64,000 bases of DNA from Escherichia coli (GTDB lineage: Bacteria > Pseudomonadota > Gammaproteobacteria > Enterobacterales > Enterobacteriaceae), in the NCBI RefSeq assembly GCF_030384885.1, contig NZ_CP128613.1. One strand, 5' to 3'. How positions within the stretch are numbered: the stretch's first letter is position 1; each line of letters begins with the position of its first letter. Position numbers and translations under genes: made by a program. This document shows, piece after piece, positions 3,592 through 22,914 of this stretch. The notes below the pieces were generated by a model. It ran no database searches and was not told the DNA's origin. It saw only the letters and a program-made list of their open reading frames with translations.

Positions 3592-4914
3592 TTATAACCG
3601 ATGAAATTTTGCCAGTAAGGCCAGTGAAAATGTTGTCAGCAAAATGGTAATGACTGCGTAAATATACACTCCTGACCATTCCCAACTGTTTTTCACCATA
3701 ATAACTGGAAGCCCTGCCATTGCCGCGCCTAAATAACTAAACAAGCCCCTGAATCCAGTAATGGAACCTGCCGCATCTTTATGCGTAACATCAAGACACC
3801 CGACAGCGAATAACATATGCGGTCCATACAATGCAAACCCCATGATTGTAAACAGAATAGCCGTTAATGTGTAGGAGACGTCCTGCACCAGCGGTACGAG
3901 AACGATGCAAATACATAAAGCGATGGCAAAGATTAATCCGGTCATCCAGCGGTTACTTTTAAACATGAAATCGGACAAGTACCCCGCCAGTAATCCCCCA
4001 GCAAGTCCACCTGCTTCAAACCAGGATATAATGGAGTTCGCTTTAATCAGGCTCCAGTTATGAACCTGAGAATAATAAATTTGTGGCCAGTCATTGAGGA
4101 TGGTGCGTGCAATATAGACCGACATATCCCCGAGGATAATGAGCCAAACTAATGGGTTGGTAAGAATATATTTAACGAATATTTGCCAAAAACTGAGATC
4201 AACCGGACTTGCTTTAACTTGTGCAAGTTCTGTCGGGTCGTTGCGCCACTTACCGACGTTAGGCAAACCGAGCGTGCCGGGACGATCTTTTATCGTAAAC
4301 AAGGCAACAATCCCCATAATCAGTGAGATTACACCCGGAACATAAAAGCCCATCTTCCAGCTGCCACTAAAAGCAATAGCAAAGCTTGTCAGGAGAGGCG
4401 CAAGACTACCGCCAATATTATGCGCAGCTTCAACAACTGCCCACCAGCGTCCGCGTTCATTTTTCGAGAACCACGAGGCCATAATTTTTGCCATTGGCGG
4501 AAAACTGGTACCCTGGAGAATAGCATTAAGGCTATACAGGATATAGAACGCAGCAACGCTGTCTGAAAAACCGAAAAGAATGTTAACAATACCGACGCCA
4601 ATAAGTACGGGGCCAGTCATCGCTCGTGGGTTAATTTTATCGACTAACATGCCACCTACAAACTTCATGGAGCCATAAAGAATGTAAAAGACCGACGACA
4701 TGATAGCGAAATCTTGTGCGGTTAATGACGTATCCGTTAACATCGCTGGCATGGCCGCAGAGAAATTCTTGCGGGTTAAGTAAAATACGGCATAAGAGAT
4801 AAATACAGAGGTGATGATTTCAATGCGAAATTTTTTATAAGTATGATCAACTTCTTCTTTTGGTTTGACCACCGGTTGGTCGGCCTGGCTGAAAATAAAT
4901 TTTTTCAAACTCAT
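3592..4914 (-). CDS. MFS transporter of the organophosphate:Pi antiporter family (UhpT/GlpT/PgtP-like)
   Basis: 440-aa 12-TM protein; segments such as WQIFVKYILTNPLVWL align to recalled UhpT (WQIFVEYVLKNKVIWL); AT-rich, part of inserted island. Confidence 0.75.
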   Translation of the reverse strand: MSLKKFIFSQADQPVVKPKEEVDHTYKKFRIEIITSVFISYAVFYLTRKNFSAAMPAMLTDTSLTAQDFAIMSSVFYILYGSMKFVGGMLVDKINPRAMTGPVLIGVGIVNILFGFSDSVAAFYILYSLNAILQGTSFPPMAKIMASWFSKNERGRWWAVVEAAHNIGGSLAPLLTSFAIAFSGSWKMGFYVPGVISLIMGIVALFTIKDRPGTLGLPNVGKWRNDPTELAQVKASPVDLSFWQIFVKYILTNPLVWLIILGDMSVYIARTILNDWPQIYYSQVHNWSLIKANSIISWFEAGGLAGGLLAGYLSDFMFKSNRWMTGLIFAIALCICIVLVPLVQDVSYTLTAILFTIMGFALYGPHMLFAVGCLDVTHKDAAGSITGFRGLFSYLGAAMAGLPVIMVKNSWEWSGVYIYAVITILLTTFSLALLAKFHRL

Positions 4915-4946
4915 TGTGAGTTTCCTTTTCTGTGAACCTTATGGCG

Positions 4947-5834
4947 CTATAATTTTTCTTCTATAAAAAAGAGAAGCGACTCGAAACCATTAAAATTAAT
5001 CTGGTCAGCAATTTTTTCCCGGGTTTTAGGTTTTGCTTTCCATGCCACGCCATTTCCGGCATGCAAAAGCATAGGAATATCATTGGCACCATCTCCACAG
5101 GCAATGATGTTTTCACGGCAGATAGCTAACTCTGTCGCTAAATTTATCAGGGTTTGCTTTTTCTTTTCTGCATTCATAATAGGTAAGGTAATTGTATCAG
5201 TTAACAGATCTTCCTTAATGCGCACAGAGTTAGAAAATGCAAAATCAAGTTGATATTTTTCCTTCAATCGCTCAGTAAAAATATCCAAACCTCCAGATAT
5301 AATTGCCGTCTTGAATCCTTTTTCTTTTAGTATGGGAAGAATAGTTTCAAGACCTGGTGAAAGAGTCATCTGTTCACAAACTTGATGCAATATATCTTTA
5401 TGCGTTCCTTTAAGCATGGCAATTCGCCGGGTAAAACTGGTATCAAAATCGATTTTCCCTTCCATCGCTTCACGGGTCAGTGCGGTGATTTTTTCAGAGA
5501 TGCCGAGTCTACGGGCTATTTCATCGACACCTTCTTCTTCAACAAAGGTGGAATCCATATCAAAGGCAATAATTCCCTGATCCGGTAAGACCCTGGGTTT
5601 ACGGAAAAAATCAAACTGATGATTATCAGCACGGTGACGTAAACCAGCATAAAAAGCAGGGTTGGTAACATCATCTGGTAATACTAGCTTTAGATACTCT
5701 TTATTTATTTGCCCACTGTAATTCGTTGTTAGCGAAAACACCGAGGGGGAAATCTTTAAATGTTGCAGATAATCTTCCAGACATTTTTGGGTGATGTCGA
5801 TGCCTGTTGGCGACAAGAAATAAATAATCGTCAT
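4947..5834 (-). CDS. HAD-family phosphatase, phosphoserine phosphatase (SerB)-like
   Basis: 295 aa; HAD motif I FDMDST, motif III K...GG, motif IV GDGANDIPML as in SerB. Confidence 0.75.
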   Translation of the reverse strand: MTIIYFLSPTGIDITQKCLEDYLQHLKISPSVFSLTTNYSGQINKEYLKLVLPDDVTNPAFYAGLRHRADNHQFDFFRKPRVLPDQGIIAFDMDSTFVEEEGVDEIARRLGISEKITALTREAMEGKIDFDTSFTRRIAMLKGTHKDILHQVCEQMTLSPGLETILPILKEKGFKTAIISGGLDIFTERLKEKYQLDFAFSNSVRIKEDLLTDTITLPIMNAEKKKQTLINLATELAICRENIIACGDGANDIPMLLHAGNGVAWKAKPKTREKIADQINFNGFESLLFFIEEKL

Positions 5835-5927
5835 TTACCGCTCCTTTTTATCTGCAATGATTATAATAAGATTTCATAGAGGCTGATGTATCTGACAATC
5901 ACAGTTGTGAATGTTAAATAAAAGATA

Positions 5928-5991
5928 AAAAAGTACTTTTTTTGATACTTTGAAATAATAAGATACTAAAAGTACCATTTTTGATATCTTT
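5928..5991. promoter_or_regulatory. Pair of ~23-bp imperfect direct repeats in divergent promoter region of the island (candidate operator)
   Basis: aaaagtactttttttgatacttt (5928-5950) and aaaagtaccatttttgatatcttt (5968-5991) in the AT-rich gap between divergent operons. Confidence 0.4.
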
Positions 5992-6044
5992 ACCAGGATA
6001 TAAAGAATAACTATTTTTCAACGTTGAAGGAATCATTTAAAAAT

Positions 6045-7397
6045 ATGGAAAGCTGCATAGATATATTCAAGATAGTTATTGGTCCATCCAGTTCCCGCAC
6101 AGTCGGGCCAATGCGTGCGGCTTATAATTTTGTGTCACAATTGAAACAGCAAGAAATGTTACCTTTGTTGCGGAAAATTGATGTCGAACTTTATGGTGCG
6201 CTGTCATTAAGCCGCAAGTGCCATAATGTTGATGTGGCGATTTATCTCGGTTTGCAAGGACACTTACCTGACAGCGTTGACATTCGCATGGAAATGTCCG
6301 CCATCAGGCGTGCAGAAACTGAGGCGACGCTGGAAGTTATGCCTGGTGTCAACGTCAGTGTATCCATTCTTTCTAATCTACAAGCGCATCCGGGGCACCC
6401 TTATGCGATGACATTTCGTGCCAGAGATGACTGGTTTACACTTTATGAAGAAACCTGGTTTTCTATCGGCGACGGTCAAGTGCTAAAAGCAGGAGAGGCG
6501 ATTATTCCTCCATCAGTCACTCCACATCCTTTTGAATTCCAGAACGCAAACGAATTATTAAAACTTTGTCAGCAAAACGGATTATCTGTCGCGGCATTAA
6601 TGATGAAAAACGAACTGCACTGCCAGACAGCAGCTTTTTTGCATGACGATCTTCATAAAAAATGGGAAGTAATGAAGGATGCGGTTTATCGCGGGATGCA
6701 TACAGAAGGATTACTTCCAGGTCCGTTTCAGGTTAACCGTCGTGCCTGTGCTTTATATAAATCGTTGCAGTCAAAGGGTTTTTCCAATGACTTCCTGACT
6801 GCGCTCAATTGGGTCAATACTTTTGCCATTGCGGTGAGCGAAGAAAATGCTGCGGGTGGACGTGTCGTGACAGCACCCACCAACGGCGCGAGCGGTATTA
6901 TCCCGGCTGTACTGTGCTGGTATGATAAATTCATTCACGAGCTTGATACATACTCCGTTACCCGCTTTTTACTGACCGCTGGTGCCATCGCCATTCTGTT
7001 CAAAAAAAATGCCTCTATTCTGGGTTCTGAAGTTGGATGTCAGGGGGAAATAGGTGTTGCCAGTTCAATGGCGGCAGCAGGATTAGCAGAACTTATGGGC
7101 GGGTCAGTGGCTCAGGTACTTAGCGCGGCAGAAATTGCGATGGAGCATCATTTAGGTTTGACCTGTGATCCAGTTGGCGGGCAGGTACAAATTCCTTGTA
7201 TTGAACGAAATGCTATTTCAGCTGTGAAAGCTATCAACGCAACGACGATGGCGTTGAGTCGCATAAGCGAGCCGTGCATTACGCTGGATGAGATAATTTC
7301 CGCGATGTATGAAACCGGAAAGGATATGAGCGCTAAATACCGTGAAACTTATCATGGCTGTCTGAGCAAATTGCAGCCAAGAAAAAAGGATGCGTAA
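6045..7397 (+). CDS. L-serine dehydratase (Fe-S, SdaA/SdaB family) homolog
   Basis: N-terminus [23 protein letters not shown] parallels SdaA [23 protein letters not shown]; ORF track start 6024 is a TTG, ATG at 6045 preferred. Confidence 0.8.
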
Positions 7398-7398
7398 G

Positions 7399-7788
7399 AT
7401 GAAATATAATACGATGAATAACAACGAAATTATTTTATCACTGTGCGCTCGCATTAAAGAAACGCGTATCTCATTATCATTGACCCAACAGCAGTTAGCC
7501 GAGCGTGCATTGGTGGGCATAGCAACGGTCAAGCGGATTGAAAAGGGGGGAAGTTTAAATCTTGATACTCTCATTTCTCTTCTGCGCGCGCTGAATAAAT
7601 TGCAAAATCTCGATGCCATATTGTTCGAAGCAGAAATGCGTAATTTCAACGAAAATAGTTCCAGCGGCGAAGGGGCAGGGCGACTACAGGTACGCCAGCA
7701 ACTGACAGATTTAAACCAGAAGTCTCCAGCCCCGCACGCAGATGACCATAATTTTAGTACGGCGCTGGAAAATACCCTCTGCTGGTGA
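7399..7788 (+). CDS. XRE-family helix-turn-helix transcriptional regulator
   Basis: HTH segment LSLTQQQLAERALVGIATVKRIEKG; start ambiguous (7390/7399/7414); overlaps end of upstream gene, stop abuts yeiG stop. Confidence 0.65.
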   Translation: MKYNTMNNNEIILSLCARIKETRISLSLTQQQLAERALVGIATVKRIEKGGSLNLDTLISLLRALNKLQNLDAILFEAEMRNFNENSSSGEGAGRLQVRQQLTDLNQKSPAPHADDHNFSTALENTLCW

Positions 7789-9567: not shown

Positions 9568-10725
9568 ATGGAGCGCAACGTCACGCTCGATTTTGTTCGC
9601 GGCGTCGCCATTCTGGGGATCCTGCTATTAAACATCAGCGCCTTTGGGTTACCAAAGGCGGCTTATCTCAATCCCGCCTGGTACGGCGCTATTACGCCGC
9701 AGGATGCATGGACCTGGGCATTACTCGATCTCATCGGTCAGGTGAAATTCCTCACGCTTTTTGCGTTGCTGTTTGGTGCTGGCCTGCAAATGTTGCTACC
9801 CCGTGGCAAACGCTGGATCCAGTCGCGGTTAACACTGTTAGTCTTGTTGGGCTTTATTCACGGTTTATTGTTCTGGGACGGCGATATTCTGTTGGCTTAC
9901 GGGCTGGTGGGCTTAATCTGTTGGCGGCTGGTGCGCGATGCGCCATCGGTAAAAAGCCTGTTTAATACCGGCGTCATGCTTTATCTGGTGGGGCTTGGCG
10001 TTTTGCTATTGTTGGGGTTGATTTCAGACAGTCAGACCAGCCGCGCCTGGACGCCGGATGCATCGGCTATTTTGTATGAAAAATACTGGAAGCTTCACGG
10101 CGGCGTTGAAGCGATCAGTAATCGTGCCGATGGTGTTGGCAACAGTTTACTGGCACTGGGCGCACAGTATGGCTGGCAACTGGCAGGGATGATGCTAATT
10201 GGCGCGGCGCTGATGCGCAGTGGCTGGCTGAAAGGACAGTTTAGCTTGCGCCATTATCGGCGTACCGGTTTTGTGCTGGTGGCGATTGGGGTGATCATTA
10301 ACCTTCCAGCGATCGCCCTGCAATGGCGGCTGGACTGGGCATATCGCTGGTGCGCCTTCTTACTTCAGATGCCGCGGGAACTGAGTGCGCCGTTTCAGGC
10401 GGTTGGCTATGCGTCGCTGTTTTATGGTTTCTGGCCGCAATTGAGCCGCTTTAAGCTGGTGCTCGCGATCGCCTGCGTCGGACGGATGGCGCTGACCAAC
10501 TATCTATTGCAAACGCTGATTTGTACCACGCTTTTTTATCACCTCAGTTTGTTTATGCAGTTTGACCGTCTGGAATTGCTGGCGTTTGTTATTCCGGTAT
10601 GGCTGGCGAATATTCTCTTCTCTGTTATCTGGCTGCGTTACTTCCGTCAGGGGCCGGTGGAATGGCTCTGGCGTCAGTTAACTTTACGTGCTGCCGGACC
10701 TGCATTATCTAAAACATCAAGATAA
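9568..10725 (+). CDS. yeiB: DUF418-family inner membrane protein
   Basis: 385-aa polytopic membrane protein in conserved position after folE. Confidence 0.85.
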   Translation: MERNVTLDFVRGVAILGILLLNISAFGLPKAAYLNPAWYGAITPQDAWTWALLDLIGQVKFLTLFALLFGAGLQMLLPRGKRWIQSRLTLLVLLGFIHGLLFWDGDILLAYGLVGLICWRLVRDAPSVKSLFNTGVMLYLVGLGVLLLLGLISDSQTSRAWTPDASAILYEKYWKLHGGVEAISNRADGVGNSLLALGAQYGWQLAGMMLIGAALMRSGWLKGQFSLRHYRRTGFVLVAIGVIINLPAIALQWRLDWAYRWCAFLLQMPRELSAPFQAVGYASLFYGFWPQLSRFKLVLAIACVGRMALTNYLLQTLICTTLFYHLSLFMQFDRLELLAFVIPVWLANILFSVIWLRYFRQGPVEWLWRQLTLRAAGPALSKTSR

Positions 10726-10755
10726 CGATCTGGATCACATTCATTAACAAAATGG

Positions 10756-10790
10756 TTGTAACCGTTTCCATTGCTGTGACTCGATTCACG
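10756..10790 (+). promoter_or_regulatory. galS promoter: gal-type operator-like palindrome plus CRP site
   Basis: ttgtaaccgtttccat resembles GalR/GalS operator GTGTAAACGATTCCAC; tgtgactcgattcacg (10775-10790) fits CRP consensus TGTGA-N6-TCACA. Confidence 0.5.
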
Positions 10791-10866
10791 AAGTCCTGAA
10801 TTCAGTGCTGACAAAATAGCCGCCAGCAAGCAGGCATTTACTGCAATCTCATAACAGGTAGTGAAT

Positions 10867-11907
10867 ATGATCACCATTCGTGATGTAGCGCGTCAGGCTG
10901 GCGTCTCTGTGGCAACGGTTTCCCGGGTGCTCAATAACAGCACGCTGGTCAGTGCCGACACGCGTGAAGCAGTAATGAAAGCAGTGAGCGAGCTGGATTA
11001 TCGGCCAAACGCCAATGCCCAGGCGCTGGCAACTCAGGTTAGCGATACCATTGGCGTGGTGGTAATGGACGTTTCTGATGCGTTTTTCGGCGCGCTGGTA
11101 AAAGCGGTGGATCTCGTCGCCCAGCAGCACCAGAAATATGTGCTAATAGGTAATAGCTATCATGAAGCGGAAAAAGAGCGTCATGCCATTGAGGTGTTAA
11201 TTCGTCAGCGTTGTAACGCGTTGATTGTTCATTCAAAAGCGTTAAGCGATGATGAATTAGCGCAGTTTATGGATAACATTCCCGGTATGGTGTTAATCAA
11301 CCGCGTTGTGCCAGGTTACGCCCATCGTTGCGTTTGCCTGGATAATCTCAGTGGTGCCCGAATGGCCACGCGCATGTTGCTCAATAATGGTCATCAACGT
11401 ATTGGTTATCTTTCTTCCAGCCACGGTATTGAAGATGATGCCATGCGCAAAGCAGGCTGGATGAGTGCGTTGAAAGAGCAGGATATTATTCCGTCGGAAA
11501 GCTGGATTGGCACTGGCACCCCGGACATGCCAGGCGGTGAGGCGGCGATGGTTGAACTGCTGGGGCGCAATCTACAACTTACCGCTGTATTTGCATACAA
11601 CGACAATATGGCCGCTGGCGCACTGACGGCATTAAAAGATAATGGTATTGCGATTCCGTTACATCTCTCAATCATCGGTTTCGATGATATTCCCATCGCT
11701 CGTTACACCGACCCACAATTAACGACCGTGCGTTATCCCATTGCTTCGATGGCAAAATTAGCTACCGAACTGGCCTTACAAGGGGCAGCAGGCAACATTG
11801 ATCCTCACGCCAGCCACTGTTTTATGCCGACGTTAGTGCGTCGCCATTCTGTCGCAACGCGCCAGAATGCGGCAGCGATCACTAACTCAACAAATCAGTC
11901 GATGTAA
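10867..11907 (+). CDS. galS: LacI-family repressor of mgl/gal regulon
   Basis: N-terminal [26 protein letters not shown]; matches recalled GalS; track start 10861 is 2 codons upstream. Confidence 0.9.
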
Positions 11908-11919
11908 CCGCTTTCAATC

Positions 11920-11935
11920 TGTGAGTGATTTCACA
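11920..11935 (+). promoter_or_regulatory. CRP-binding site upstream of mglB
   Basis: tgtgagtgatttcaca is a perfect TGTGA-N6-TCACA; followed by tgtaac-containing operator-like sequence (11961-11990). Confidence 0.5.
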
Positions 11936-12186
11936 GTATATTAACAATGCGATAGCTATGATTGCACCGTTTTAACGCTGTAACCTGTATGTAACAGTGA
12001 ATCATCACTTTCACCGAGGTAATAGCGTCATAACAACAATTAAAGCCGTTTTCTGGAGCGTTACCGGGCATGGAAGAACGAATTTTAAAAAGTGAGCTTC
12101 GGCGTTCAGTAACACTTCATTAACTCTACTGCCCCGCCGAGCATTTATCTCAAGCACTACCCTGCATAAGAAAAACCGGAGATACC

Positions 12187-13185
12187 ATGAATAAGAAGGT
12201 GTTAACCCTGTCTGCTGTAATGGCCAGTATGTTATTCGGTGCCACTGCACACGCTGCTGATACCCGTATTGGTGTAACAATCTATAAGTACGACGATAAC
12301 TTTATGTCTGTTGTGCGCAAGGCTATCGAACAAGATGCGAAAGCCGCGCCAGATGTTCAGCTGCTGATGAATGATTCTCAGAATGACCAGTCCAAGCAGA
12401 ACGATCAGATCGATGTATTGCTGGCGAAAGGGGTGAAGGCACTGGCGATCAACCTGGTTGACCCGGCAGCTGCGGGTACGGTGATTGAGAAAGCGCGCGG
12501 GCAAAACGTGCCGGTGGTTTTCTTCAACAAAGAACCGTCTCGTAAGGCGCTGGATAGCTACGATAAAGCCTACTATGTCGGCACTGACTCCAAAGAGTCC
12601 GGCATTATTCAGGGCGATTTGATTGCTAAGCATTGGGCGGCAAACCAGGATTGGGATCTCAACAAAGACGGTCAGATTCAATTCGTACTGCTGAAAGGTG
12701 AACCGGGCCATCCGGATGCAGAAGCACGCACCACTTACGTGATTAAAGAGCTGAACGACAAAGGCATCAAAACTGAACAGTTACAGTTAGATACCGCTAT
12801 GTGGGATACCGCTCAGGCGAAAGATAAGATGGACGCCTGGCTGTCTGGCCCGAACGCCAACAAAATCGAAGTGGTTATCGCCAACAACGATGCGATGGCA
12901 ATGGGCGCAGTAGAAGCACTGAAAGCACACAACAAGTCCAGCATTCCAGTGTTTGGTGTCGATGCGCTGCCAGAAGCTCTGGCACTGGTGAAATCCGGTG
13001 CACTGGCGGGCACCGTATTGAACGACGCTAACAACCAGGCGAAAGCGACTTTTGATCTGGCGAAAAACCTGGCCGATGGCAAAGGTGCGGCTGATGGTAC
13101 CAACTGGAAAATCGACAACAAAGTGGTCCGCGTACCTTACGTTGGCGTAGATAAAGACAACCTGGCTGAATTCAGCAAGAAATAA
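12187..13185 (+). CDS. mglB: Periplasmic galactose/glucose-binding protein
   Basis: 332 aa with signal peptide ...[12 protein letters not shown]; matches recalled MglB. Confidence 0.95.
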
Positions 13186-18330: not shown

Positions 18331-18534
18331 GTGATCTTCCTTAATGCTATGAGTAATTAAGGCGAACGCTAAATATACTCGTCATACTTCAAGTTGCATG
18401 TGCTGCGTCTGCGTTAGCTCACCCCAGTCACTTGTCGCCTTCCTGCAACTCGAATTATTTAGAGTATAAATATTGCGTGCTGATATTAAGGCTAAGCGTG
18501 TGGGGAAATTTAAACTGTGAAAGGATTCACAAAT

Positions 18535-20652: not shown

Positions 20653-20781
20653 GGCGTTGCCTCATAATCATGTAATGGGATAACAGTTTACGAACCCGTT
20701 ATGGCTTTATATGTGATCTGAATCTCATTAATTGTGCAACGAATGAAACTTACATCAAAAATGCGCGACGCATCGCAAATT

Positions 20782-21908
<1,127 letters not shown>

Positions 21909-22002
21909 TTAATTCGTAAAACGTGCTACCGATCACATTAAGAATTCTCAGCATAGTTGAATTACAGGGAAGTAACATCGGGCGAGTGCCCAGTTCAGCA
22001 CA

Positions 22003-22914
22003 CTAATTCTGCTGTAAAAAGTGCAGAAACTGACTTAAAGCATAAGAAGGCGTTTCGTTATTACGCCAAAACACACCGACGCTGCCTTTCTGTTCAATCT
22101 TTGGCAGGTTGAGGATTGCCAGTTGCCCCTGGCTGGCATAACGTTGCGCCAGGCGTAATGACAAAATAGAGATCATATTGCTGCTTTGTAACAGGTTGGT
22201 ACTGACGTTCATCGATGCCGACTCAATCGTGTTTTCTGGCAGCATCACGCCGTGGTCTACCAGCGCATTATCAATGCTGATGCGGATGGGGGTACCTGTC
22301 GGCCAGACTATCCACCGCCAGTTAGCAAGATCATTCCAGCTGAGGGTGGCGTATTTCGCCAGTGGATGCTCAGGACGGGCGACAAAGCATACCGGCTCGG
22401 TGTAGAGCACGCGATAATTCAGCGGCAGCTGCAACGCGCGACCGCCAATTCGCCCAACCACCACATCGACAGAACCTGCCAACAGATCTTGCAGCAATGG
22501 GGTCATCACCTTCTCTTCGATATTCAGGTGTAGAGTTGGCATCTCCTTGAGCAAATGCAAAATCGCCTGGGATACGCAGTCAGTGGCGACGGGAGAACAG
22601 CCAATTTTCAGACTGCCGACCAGTCCACCTTGTTTAAAGCGAGCCAGTTCATATTGCGATCTTTCCATGTCATTGATTAACCGTTGGGCATGTTGCAATA
22701 ACAATTTGCCGCCTTCGGTCGGACGAAGCCCTTTGCTGTGCCGCTCAAAAAGTGTGAGTCCGATCTCATCTTCCAGTTGTGACAACCATTTCGAAAGCGC
22801 GGGTTGGGTGATATTCATCATCCGCGCGACATGGGTCAGATTACCCTGTTCACCCAGCGCCACCAGCATTTGCAGGTGATGTAGTTTTAGTTTTTGCGCC
22901 CAGTTCGCCATTTG
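22003..22914 (-). CDS. mhbR: LysR-family regulator of the gentisate cluster (MhbR-like)
   Basis: N-terminal HTH LTHVARMMNITQPALSKWL, divergent from the catabolic operon; start uncertain (22914 or 22959). Confidence 0.75.
   Translation of the reverse strand, partial: QMANWAQKLKLHHLQMLVALGEQGNLTHVARMMNITQPALSKWLSQLEDEIGLTLFERHSKGLRPTEGGKLLLQHAQRLINDMERSQYELARFKQGGLVGSLKIGCSPVATDCVSQAILHLLKEMPTLHLNIEEKVMTPLLQDLLAGSVDVVVGRIGGRALQLPLNYRVLYTEPVCFVARPEHPLAKYATLSWNDLANWRWIVWPTGTPIRISIDNALVDHGVMLPENTIESASMNVSTNLLQSSNMISILSLRLAQRYASQGQLAILNLPKIEQKGSVGVFWRNNETPSYALSQFLHFLQQN

Follow-up and report, generated by a model that had tools for sequence, protein, structure and literature searches.

The analyzed DNA was a single stretch of 64,000 nucleotides of the Escherichia coli chromosome (contig NZ_CP128613.1), referred to here as the window, in which the genes follow the order folE-yeiB-galS-mglBAC. 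RefSeq annotates the locus of interest as yeiB, galS, and mglB, and the layout in E. coli K-12 MG1655 is the same. The 1.6 kb surrounding the galS and mglB control sites were 100% identical to the corresponding DNA of E. coli 2013C-4282, and the galS-mglB region was found in 5425 of 5426 complete E. coli genomes. Compared to K-12, the galS and mglB regulatory regions showed approximately 98% identity, and every site discussed below was identical. Set against K-12 galSp and mglBp as described in RegulonDB/EcoCyc and by Qian et al., the sequences of the sites, their order, and their spacing were the same; this strain differs at a few flanking bases only, and nothing substantial distinguishes it. 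The features of the locus are collected in Table 1.

Table 1. Genes and control features of the galS-mglB locus. Positions are those of the window; operator centers relative to the transcription start were calculated from the RegulonDB CRP distances.
Feature	Position	Strand	Sequence or product	Placement and remarks
yeiB	ends at 10725			stop codon TAA at 10723-10725
Candidate second CRP site of galSp	10721-10742	+	GATAACGATCTGGATCACATTC	center about -93.5 (51 bp upstream of the galS CRP site)
galS external GalR/GalS operator (O_E)	10756-10771		TTGTAACCGTTTCCAT	center about -61.5
galS CRP site	10772-10793 (core 10775-10790)		core TGTGACTCGATTCACG	class II position, center -42.5
galSp extended -10 (predicted)	10809-10817	+	TGaCAAAAT	predicted start about 10825
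galS CDS	10867-11907	+	LacI-family galactose isorepressor, 346 aa	RefSeq; Pfam LacI HTH and Peripla_BP
galS internal operator (O_I)	10908-10923		GTGGCAACGGTTTCCC	center about +91.5, within the GalS helix-turn-helix codons
mgl GalS/GalR operator	11902-11917		ATGTAACCGCTTTCAA	center about -59.5; contains the galS stop codon TAA (11905-11907)
mglBAC CRP site	11917-11938 (core 11920-11935)		core TGTGAGTGATTTCACA	class II, center -41.5
mglBp -10 (predicted)	11957-11962	+	TATGAT	predicted start about 11969
mglB 5′ leader	11969-12186	+		about 218 nt; conserved blocks (17-genus alignment)
Two leader TGTAAC copies	11979-11984, 11990-11995	+	TGTAAC	about +11 to +27 of the mglB transcript
mglB CDS	12187-13185	+	periplasmic galactose/glucose-binding protein	RefSeq; Pfam Peripla_BP_4

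Operators were scored with a GalR/GalS position weight matrix (PWM) that was built from 16 other GalR ChIP-chip sites (Qian et al. 2016, PMC5110547), with the sites under test left out; the training sites ranged from 12.0 to 19.5 bits. Chance expectations were obtained from mononucleotide shuffles of the 64-kb window. The original prediction had placed a gal-operator-like palindrome upstream of galS, and O_E is indeed present there as an imperfect 16-bp dyad with zero mismatches to the gal operator core TGTAANCGNTTNCA. It scored 19.7 bits (10757-10770 in the PWM) and ranked first of the approximately 64,000 positions, with 0.003 matches of this strength expected per shuffled window. The mgl operator, likewise without a mismatch to the core, ranked second in the window (17.5 bits; 11903-11916 in the PWM; 0.05 expected). 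The 16-bp hyphenated dyad with a central CG that characterizes GalR/GalS operators (GTGNAANC.GNTTNCAC; conserved positions T2, G3, A5, and A6 in the left half and T11, T12, C14, and A15 in the right half) was found at both sites. Matches to the operator core with up to one mismatch were expected by chance 1.16 times. Both operators correspond to sites that were inferred from K-12 GalR ChIP-chip data (ATGGAAACGGTTACA for O_E and TTGAAAGCGGTTACA for the mgl operator), and so does the internal galS operator O_I (GTGGCAACGGTTTCC) (Qian et al. 2016, PMC5110547). O_I scored 11.2 bits, just under the training range, and ranked fifth, with 2.3 matches expected at that score; its conservation beyond Escherichia was poor among the Enterobacterales galS loci that were compared. 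Because O_I is weak and is not conserved outside Escherichia, its role may be minor or lineage specific. The original prediction had omitted both O_I and the CRP-like site further upstream of galS (10721-10742). Another site named by Qian et al., the "O(mglB)" inside the mglB gene (GTGAAATCCGGTGCAC, 12988-13003), scored -0.4 on the ChIP-derived PWM and was excluded from the system.

CRP sites were scored with a 22-bp PWM derived from 47 RegulonDB sites (supplement of Shimada et al. 2011, PMC3105977), again with the test sites left out. The core of the mglB site starts two bases after the mgl operator and is a perfect TGTGA-N6-TCACA, so that the perfect CRP consensus predicted upstream of mglB was confirmed at exactly its coordinates. 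The site scored 14.6 bits (rank 5 in the window; 0.21 expected per shuffled window) and is conserved. The core of the galS site (TGTGA-N6-TCACG) starts three bases after O_E and agrees with the CRP core at 9 of 10 positions. RegulonDB lists CRP activator sites of galS at -42.5 and of mglBAC at -41.5, and the sequences given there agree with those of the window (supplement of Shimada et al. 2011, PMC3105977). On the PWM, however, the galS site reached only 6.9 bits and rank 49, with about 37 matches expected, which is chance level. The description of this site as a near-consensus CRP site adjoining the galS operator therefore holds for its presence, its core, and its conservation (see below), but not for its PWM score. 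PWM scores below threshold at the named positions had been put forward as the outcome that would speak against the original prediction; by this criterion the galS CRP site was borderline and came close to counting against it. Allowing up to one mismatch to the CRP core, five matches were found in the window compared to 1.85 expected, and the galS and mglB sites were among them. The combination of an operator with a CRP site 17 to 20 bp after it was observed twice, compared to 0.018 expected in the window, an excess of approximately 100-fold.

Conservation was surveyed with one genome per species, using as the query a conserved mglB coding motif that is blind to the regulatory sites; this yielded 120 loci. 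A strong pair of operator and CRP site at mglB was present in 63 of the 66 testable Enterobacterales loci, with the two centers exactly 18 bp apart. Among Pasteurellaceae, 14 of 19 loci carried the pair at a spacing of 19 to 20 bp, and it was found in none of 29 loci from Vibrio, Firmicutes, Chloroflexi, and others. At galS, 50 Enterobacterales loci with DNA upstream of a galS orthologue were compared. All 50 retained O_E, and all 50 retained the TGTGA-N6-TCACG motif, whose halves are invariant and whose six spacer bases vary freely. The distance between the centers of O_E and the CRP site was 19 bp in 49 loci and 18 bp in the remaining one. Invariant halves around a free spacer are the mark of a real CRP site, and we consider that this outweighs the poor PWM score; the reality of the galS CRP site rests on its conservation and on the literature, not on its score. 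The site is useful for calibration: although genuine and conserved, it scores at chance on a standard PWM, and its fixed spacing, together with conserved halves and a free spacer, identifies it unambiguously.

A scan for the sigma-70 consensus found no -35/-10 promoter at galSp or mglBp. This result is uninformative on its own and fits a class II dependence on CRP. The -10 elements and starts of Table 1 are placed by the RegulonDB distances of the CRP sites (-42.5 for galS and -41.5 for mglB). At both predicted positions the sequence is conserved, as a TGnCA(A/G)AAT block across genera at galSp and as CTATGAT in Enterobacteriaceae at mglBp.

The observed sequences, statistics, spacing, and conservation lead us to read galSp and mglBp as two well-characterized CRP-dependent, galactose-repressible promoters of the gal regulon, with a probability of about 95%. 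Occupancy of the sites, dependence on CRP, and repression are taken from the literature. Nine classical gal-regulon operators have been listed, one of them at mglB and two at galS (Qian et al., PMC5110547), and the galS and mglB promoters were both recovered by genomic SELEX with CRP (Shimada et al. 2011). GalR and GalS share their operators, from which galactose releases both; the galS promoter becomes more active as cAMP increases; and control of mglB is exerted by CRP together with GalS/GalR, the sites of repressor and activator there partly overlapping. CRP activates galS, and CRP and GalS both control mglBAC, so CRP, GalS, and their targets form an incoherent feed-forward loop, as has been documented.

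From the arrangement of the sites we infer a steric mechanism. When glucose is absent, cAMP-CRP bound in the class II position at -42.5 (galS) or -41.5 (mglB) would recruit RNA polymerase and replace the -35 element. In the absence of galactose, a dimer of GalS or GalR would bind the 16-bp dyad directly upstream, with its center 19 bp (galS) or 18 bp (mglB) from that of CRP. Since the footprints of operator and CRP site adjoin or overlap by one base, the bound repressor may occupy the place needed by the alpha C-terminal domain of the polymerase and by CRP, and would in this way counter the activation by CRP. Galactose would then relieve the repression by GalS/GalR. The weaker internal operator at about +91.5 would allow galS to be autoregulated. 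The control sites at galS and mglB are ordinary gal-regulon biology that is already known: knowledge of these sites goes back to the early 1990s, and Weickert and Adhya as well as Hogg et al. reportedly described galSp and mglBp of K-12. The expectation of gal-regulon control at the two genes is accordingly borne out by the RefSeq locus, the K-12 ChIP-chip sites, and the RegulonDB CRP sites, and the finding confirms that the window was read correctly as the galS-mglBAC locus of E. coli.

The layout of the two promoters resembles that of galETK P1 and galP, where an upstream GalR/GalS operator also adjoins a class II CRP site. At galP (RegulonDB), the operator ends with GATTACAC and is followed by TGA and then by TGTGA, which gives the same center distance of 19 bp as at galS. 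A second operator is present at galETK and galP, as it is at galS, whereas mglB has a single operator and a spacing of 18 bp. Unlike at galETK and galP, the main repressor of mgl is GalS rather than GalR according to the literature. Looping that depends on HU has been shown for galETK but is not known to occur at galS or mgl. The lac promoter is comparable in that CRP and a LacI-family repressor integrate the signals of glucose and of a specific sugar; its CRP site, however, is of class I at -61.5 and its main operator lies over the transcription start, whereas galSp and mglBp combine a class II CRP site with an operator upstream of it.

One modest new lead emerged at galSp, a conserved CRP-like site centered at about -93.5 that is apparently unannotated so far. 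Its presence suggests an extension of the scheme described above, not a rival to it: galSp could be a tandem-CRP promoter, with an additional CRP dimer at about -93.5 and with O_E flanked by CRP sites 51 bp from each other. Through the second alpha C-terminal domain, the upstream dimer would contribute further activation, and a bound repressor would block both. With 10.5 bits on the CRP PWM, the candidate scores above the documented galS site (6.9 bits); by itself this score is unremarkable, as 4.5 such matches are expected per 64 kb. Thirty-nine of the 47 testable Enterobacterales loci, members of Enterobacteriaceae, Erwiniaceae, and Dickeya, had their best CRP-like site upstream of the operator exactly 51 bp from the -42.5 site, and the conservation followed the pattern GA-N6-TCACAA, that is, conserved halves around a variable 6-bp spacer. 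In the left half-site, AACGA or AATGA stands in place of TGTGA, a poor match, and in the galS loci of Yersinia, Serratia, and Rahnella the site was absent. Since the stop codon of yeiB falls within the first five bases of the candidate site, coding constraint could explain part of the conservation; however, the motif persists in loci where the yeiB stop codon is located elsewhere, where the open reading frame reads through, or where no upstream open reading frame ends at this place.

Published data agree with an activator at this position. In a Reg-Seq preprint (10.1101/2025.05.13.653802), an activator site located "around -95" is described for galSp in addition to the known CRP site; its footprint was most pronounced in stationary phase and with acetate or galactose. 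These are all high-cAMP conditions, and we count the footprint in favor of CRP. The authors of that study assigned no factor to the site, which counts against the identification with CRP. A spacing of 49 to 54 bp between tandem CRP sites is also common in the RegulonDB list, for instance at cdd, nupG, nupC, manX, glpA/T, and ptsG (PMC3105977). In addition, about nine Pasteurellaceae mglB promoters displayed a layout of CRP site, operator, and CRP site, with 49 to 51 bp between two strong CRP sites. Overall, we regard tandem CRP binding at galSp as slightly better than an even bet. No comparable arrangement was seen at E. coli mglB, where the best candidate for a second CRP site upstream of the mgl operator was just a 6.0-bit match 52 bp away within galS.

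Should the -93.5 site prove real, galSp would have in common with the CytR promoters (deoP2, cdd, nupG, and nupC) a pair of CRP sites separated by about 50 bp and a LacI-family repressor site between them. We intend this resemblance to CytR-type promoters as an analogy and not as a claim of membership. CytR binds weakly alone and depends on protein contacts with CRP; GalR and GalS, by comparison, bind a strong dyad operator independently, and GalS is not known to contact CRP. The CRP pairs at cdd, nupG, and nupC are positioned at -92.5/-42.5 or -89.5/-40.5 (RegulonDB list, PMC3105977). With a real -93.5 site, a factor could be assigned to the unexplained Reg-Seq footprint, and GalS/GalR, like their paralogue CytR, might be able to act between two CRP dimers. 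On balance the odds lean narrowly toward the putative site being both the -95 activator site of the Reg-Seq study and one side of a CytR-like sandwich, which recurs at the mglB promoters of Pasteurellaceae.

At mglB, the original prediction had also mentioned operator-like repeats containing TGTAAC. This hexamer occurs three times near the gene, at 11903-11908, 11979-11984, and 11990-11995. The first copy is part of the mgl operator, and to this extent the claim stands, but as a statement about several repeats it goes too far: the two copies in the leader failed the operator PWM. It could be argued that the leader copies are additional GalR/GalS operators that loop with the upstream one, as O_E and O_I of galETK do, given that TGTAAC corresponds to the left half of the core, that Enterobacteriaceae conserve the second copy (ATGTAAC), and that galE, galP, galR, and galS have two operators each (PMC5110547). 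However, no register of the leader copies scored above -2.4, and the maximum of the operator PWM over 11940-12186 was -0.14. The copies lack both the central CG and a second half-site, and the first of them reads TGAAAC in most genera. Moreover, a single mgl operator is counted among the nine classical ones, and one site was inferred there from ChIP-chip (PMC5110547). We therefore consider it very improbable that the leader copies serve as operators.

That the motifs at galS and mglB are chance matches without a regulatory role can be dismissed: scores such as those of the galS CRP site and O_I do arise by chance in 64 kb, but the two operators take the top two ranks in the window, the paired modules exceed expectation by two orders of magnitude, their spacing is invariant over dozens of genera, and ChIP-chip, SELEX, and RegulonDB all record the sites, so that this reading is already refuted.

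The mglB transcript would begin with the leader given in Table 1. Single-sequence folding of this leader gave a z score of -1.2, and RNAalifold returned a weak consensus structure (-6.2 kcal/mol, with a covariation term of -0.25). A search of positions 10600 to 12300 identified no Rfam family, the two matches obtained being at chance level (E values of 0.3 and 0.8), and we claim no structured element in the leader. Binding of Hfq and pairing with the small RNA Spot 42 have been reported for the mglB 5′ UTR (Holmqvist et al. 2016). The conserved block of the leader just upstream of the mglB ATG (approximately 12156 to 12186) includes the reported Spot 42 pairing region.

A CRP-like site supported by its CRP position weight matrix (PWM) score and by conservation was found upstream of galS. 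It overlaps the stop codon of yeiB and lies exactly 51 bp 5′ of the documented galS CRP site. Loci from Enterobacteriaceae, Erwiniaceae, and Dickeya share the site and differ in its spacer. Its position is that of an activator footprint near −95 of galSp, to which no factor was assigned in the Reg-Seq preprint (10.1101/2025.05.13.653802).

The layout proposed for enterobacterial galSp is the CRP-operator-CRP sandwich of a set of Pasteurellaceae mglB promoters. Among the 120 mglB loci scanned (one genome per species), nine Pasteurellaceae promoters (L005, L022, L027, L081, L096, L099, L102, L109, and L118) displayed a strong CRP site on either side of the Gal operator, with a distance between CRP centers of 49 to 51 bp; this distance was 60 bp in L020. 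Within Enterobacterales, the operator and CRP pair was missing at only three of 66 testable mglB loci, namely, L026 and L066 (Budvicia) and L032 (Pantoea symbiont of Nezara), the last of which has lost the operator and retained a strong CRP site.

Another CRP-like sequence, GGTAGTGAATATGATCACCATT, covers the ribosome-binding site and ATG of galS at about +43, and its 16-bp core is listed among the genomic SELEX boxes for galS (Shimada et al. 2011, PMC3105977). The TCAC half stems from Ile-Thr codons, and the CRP likeness may therefore be coincidental. The operator within galS, a GalR site inferred from ChIP in K-12 (Qian et al. 2016, PMC5110547), is formed by the codons of the GalS helix-turn-helix (VATVSR) themselves; it is weak and is not conserved outside Escherichia.

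Features in and around the galS-mglB locus and elsewhere in the window
Feature	Position	Score or remark
F13 site, TGTTATCGTTTGCA	1366-1379	14.9 bits, rank 3 on GalR/GalS PWM
CRP-like site upstream of galS	10721-10742	CRP PWM, conservation
CRP-like sequence, GGTAGTGAATATGATCACCATT	10857-10878	9.6 bits (CRP)
galS internal operator	10908-10923	11.2 bits
mglB leader	11969-12186	218 nt
O (mglB), GTGAAATCCGGTGCAC	12988-13003	within mglB
Strong CRP site, yeiT/preT	18516-18531	perfect core; RegulonDB −57.5
Strong CRP site, cdd	20709-20730	−42.5
Strong CRP site	21919-21940	18.2 bits
Strong CRP site	22750-22771	14.9 bits

Two further sites carry names from the same GalR study (PMC5110547). The sequence TGTTATCGTTTGCA, located between lysP and cirA, is the F13 site, which Qian et al. 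tied to long-range GalR contacts by chromosome conformation capture (3C). Their O (mglB), GTGAAATCCGGTGCAC, was based on prediction and 3C; on the operator PWM built from ChIP sites its score was −0.4, and its center reads CCGG rather than CG. The true mgl operator carries the label OE (galS) in Table 1 of that study.

Several blocks of the mglB leader are kept across Enterobacteriaceae, one of them being TGAAAC-N4-TGTAAC near the 5′ end. Published Spot 42/Hfq regulation maps to an invariant block preceding the ATG (Holmqvist 2016). An Rfam search with the leader gave no match. A long hairpin is possible, with weak structural support, through pairing of GTTAC (12060-12064) with GTAAC (12109-12113) and of GGAAG (12072-12076) with CTTC (12097-12100).

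Between cirA and yeiG, a segment of about 4.2 kb (3592-7788) is not present in K-12. Its genes code for an MFS transporter resembling UhpC/PgtP, a SerB-like phosphoserine phosphatase, an L-serine ammonia-lyase, and a small HTH protein of the XRE type, and the segment looks like a strain-variable island for phosphoserine or serine utilization.
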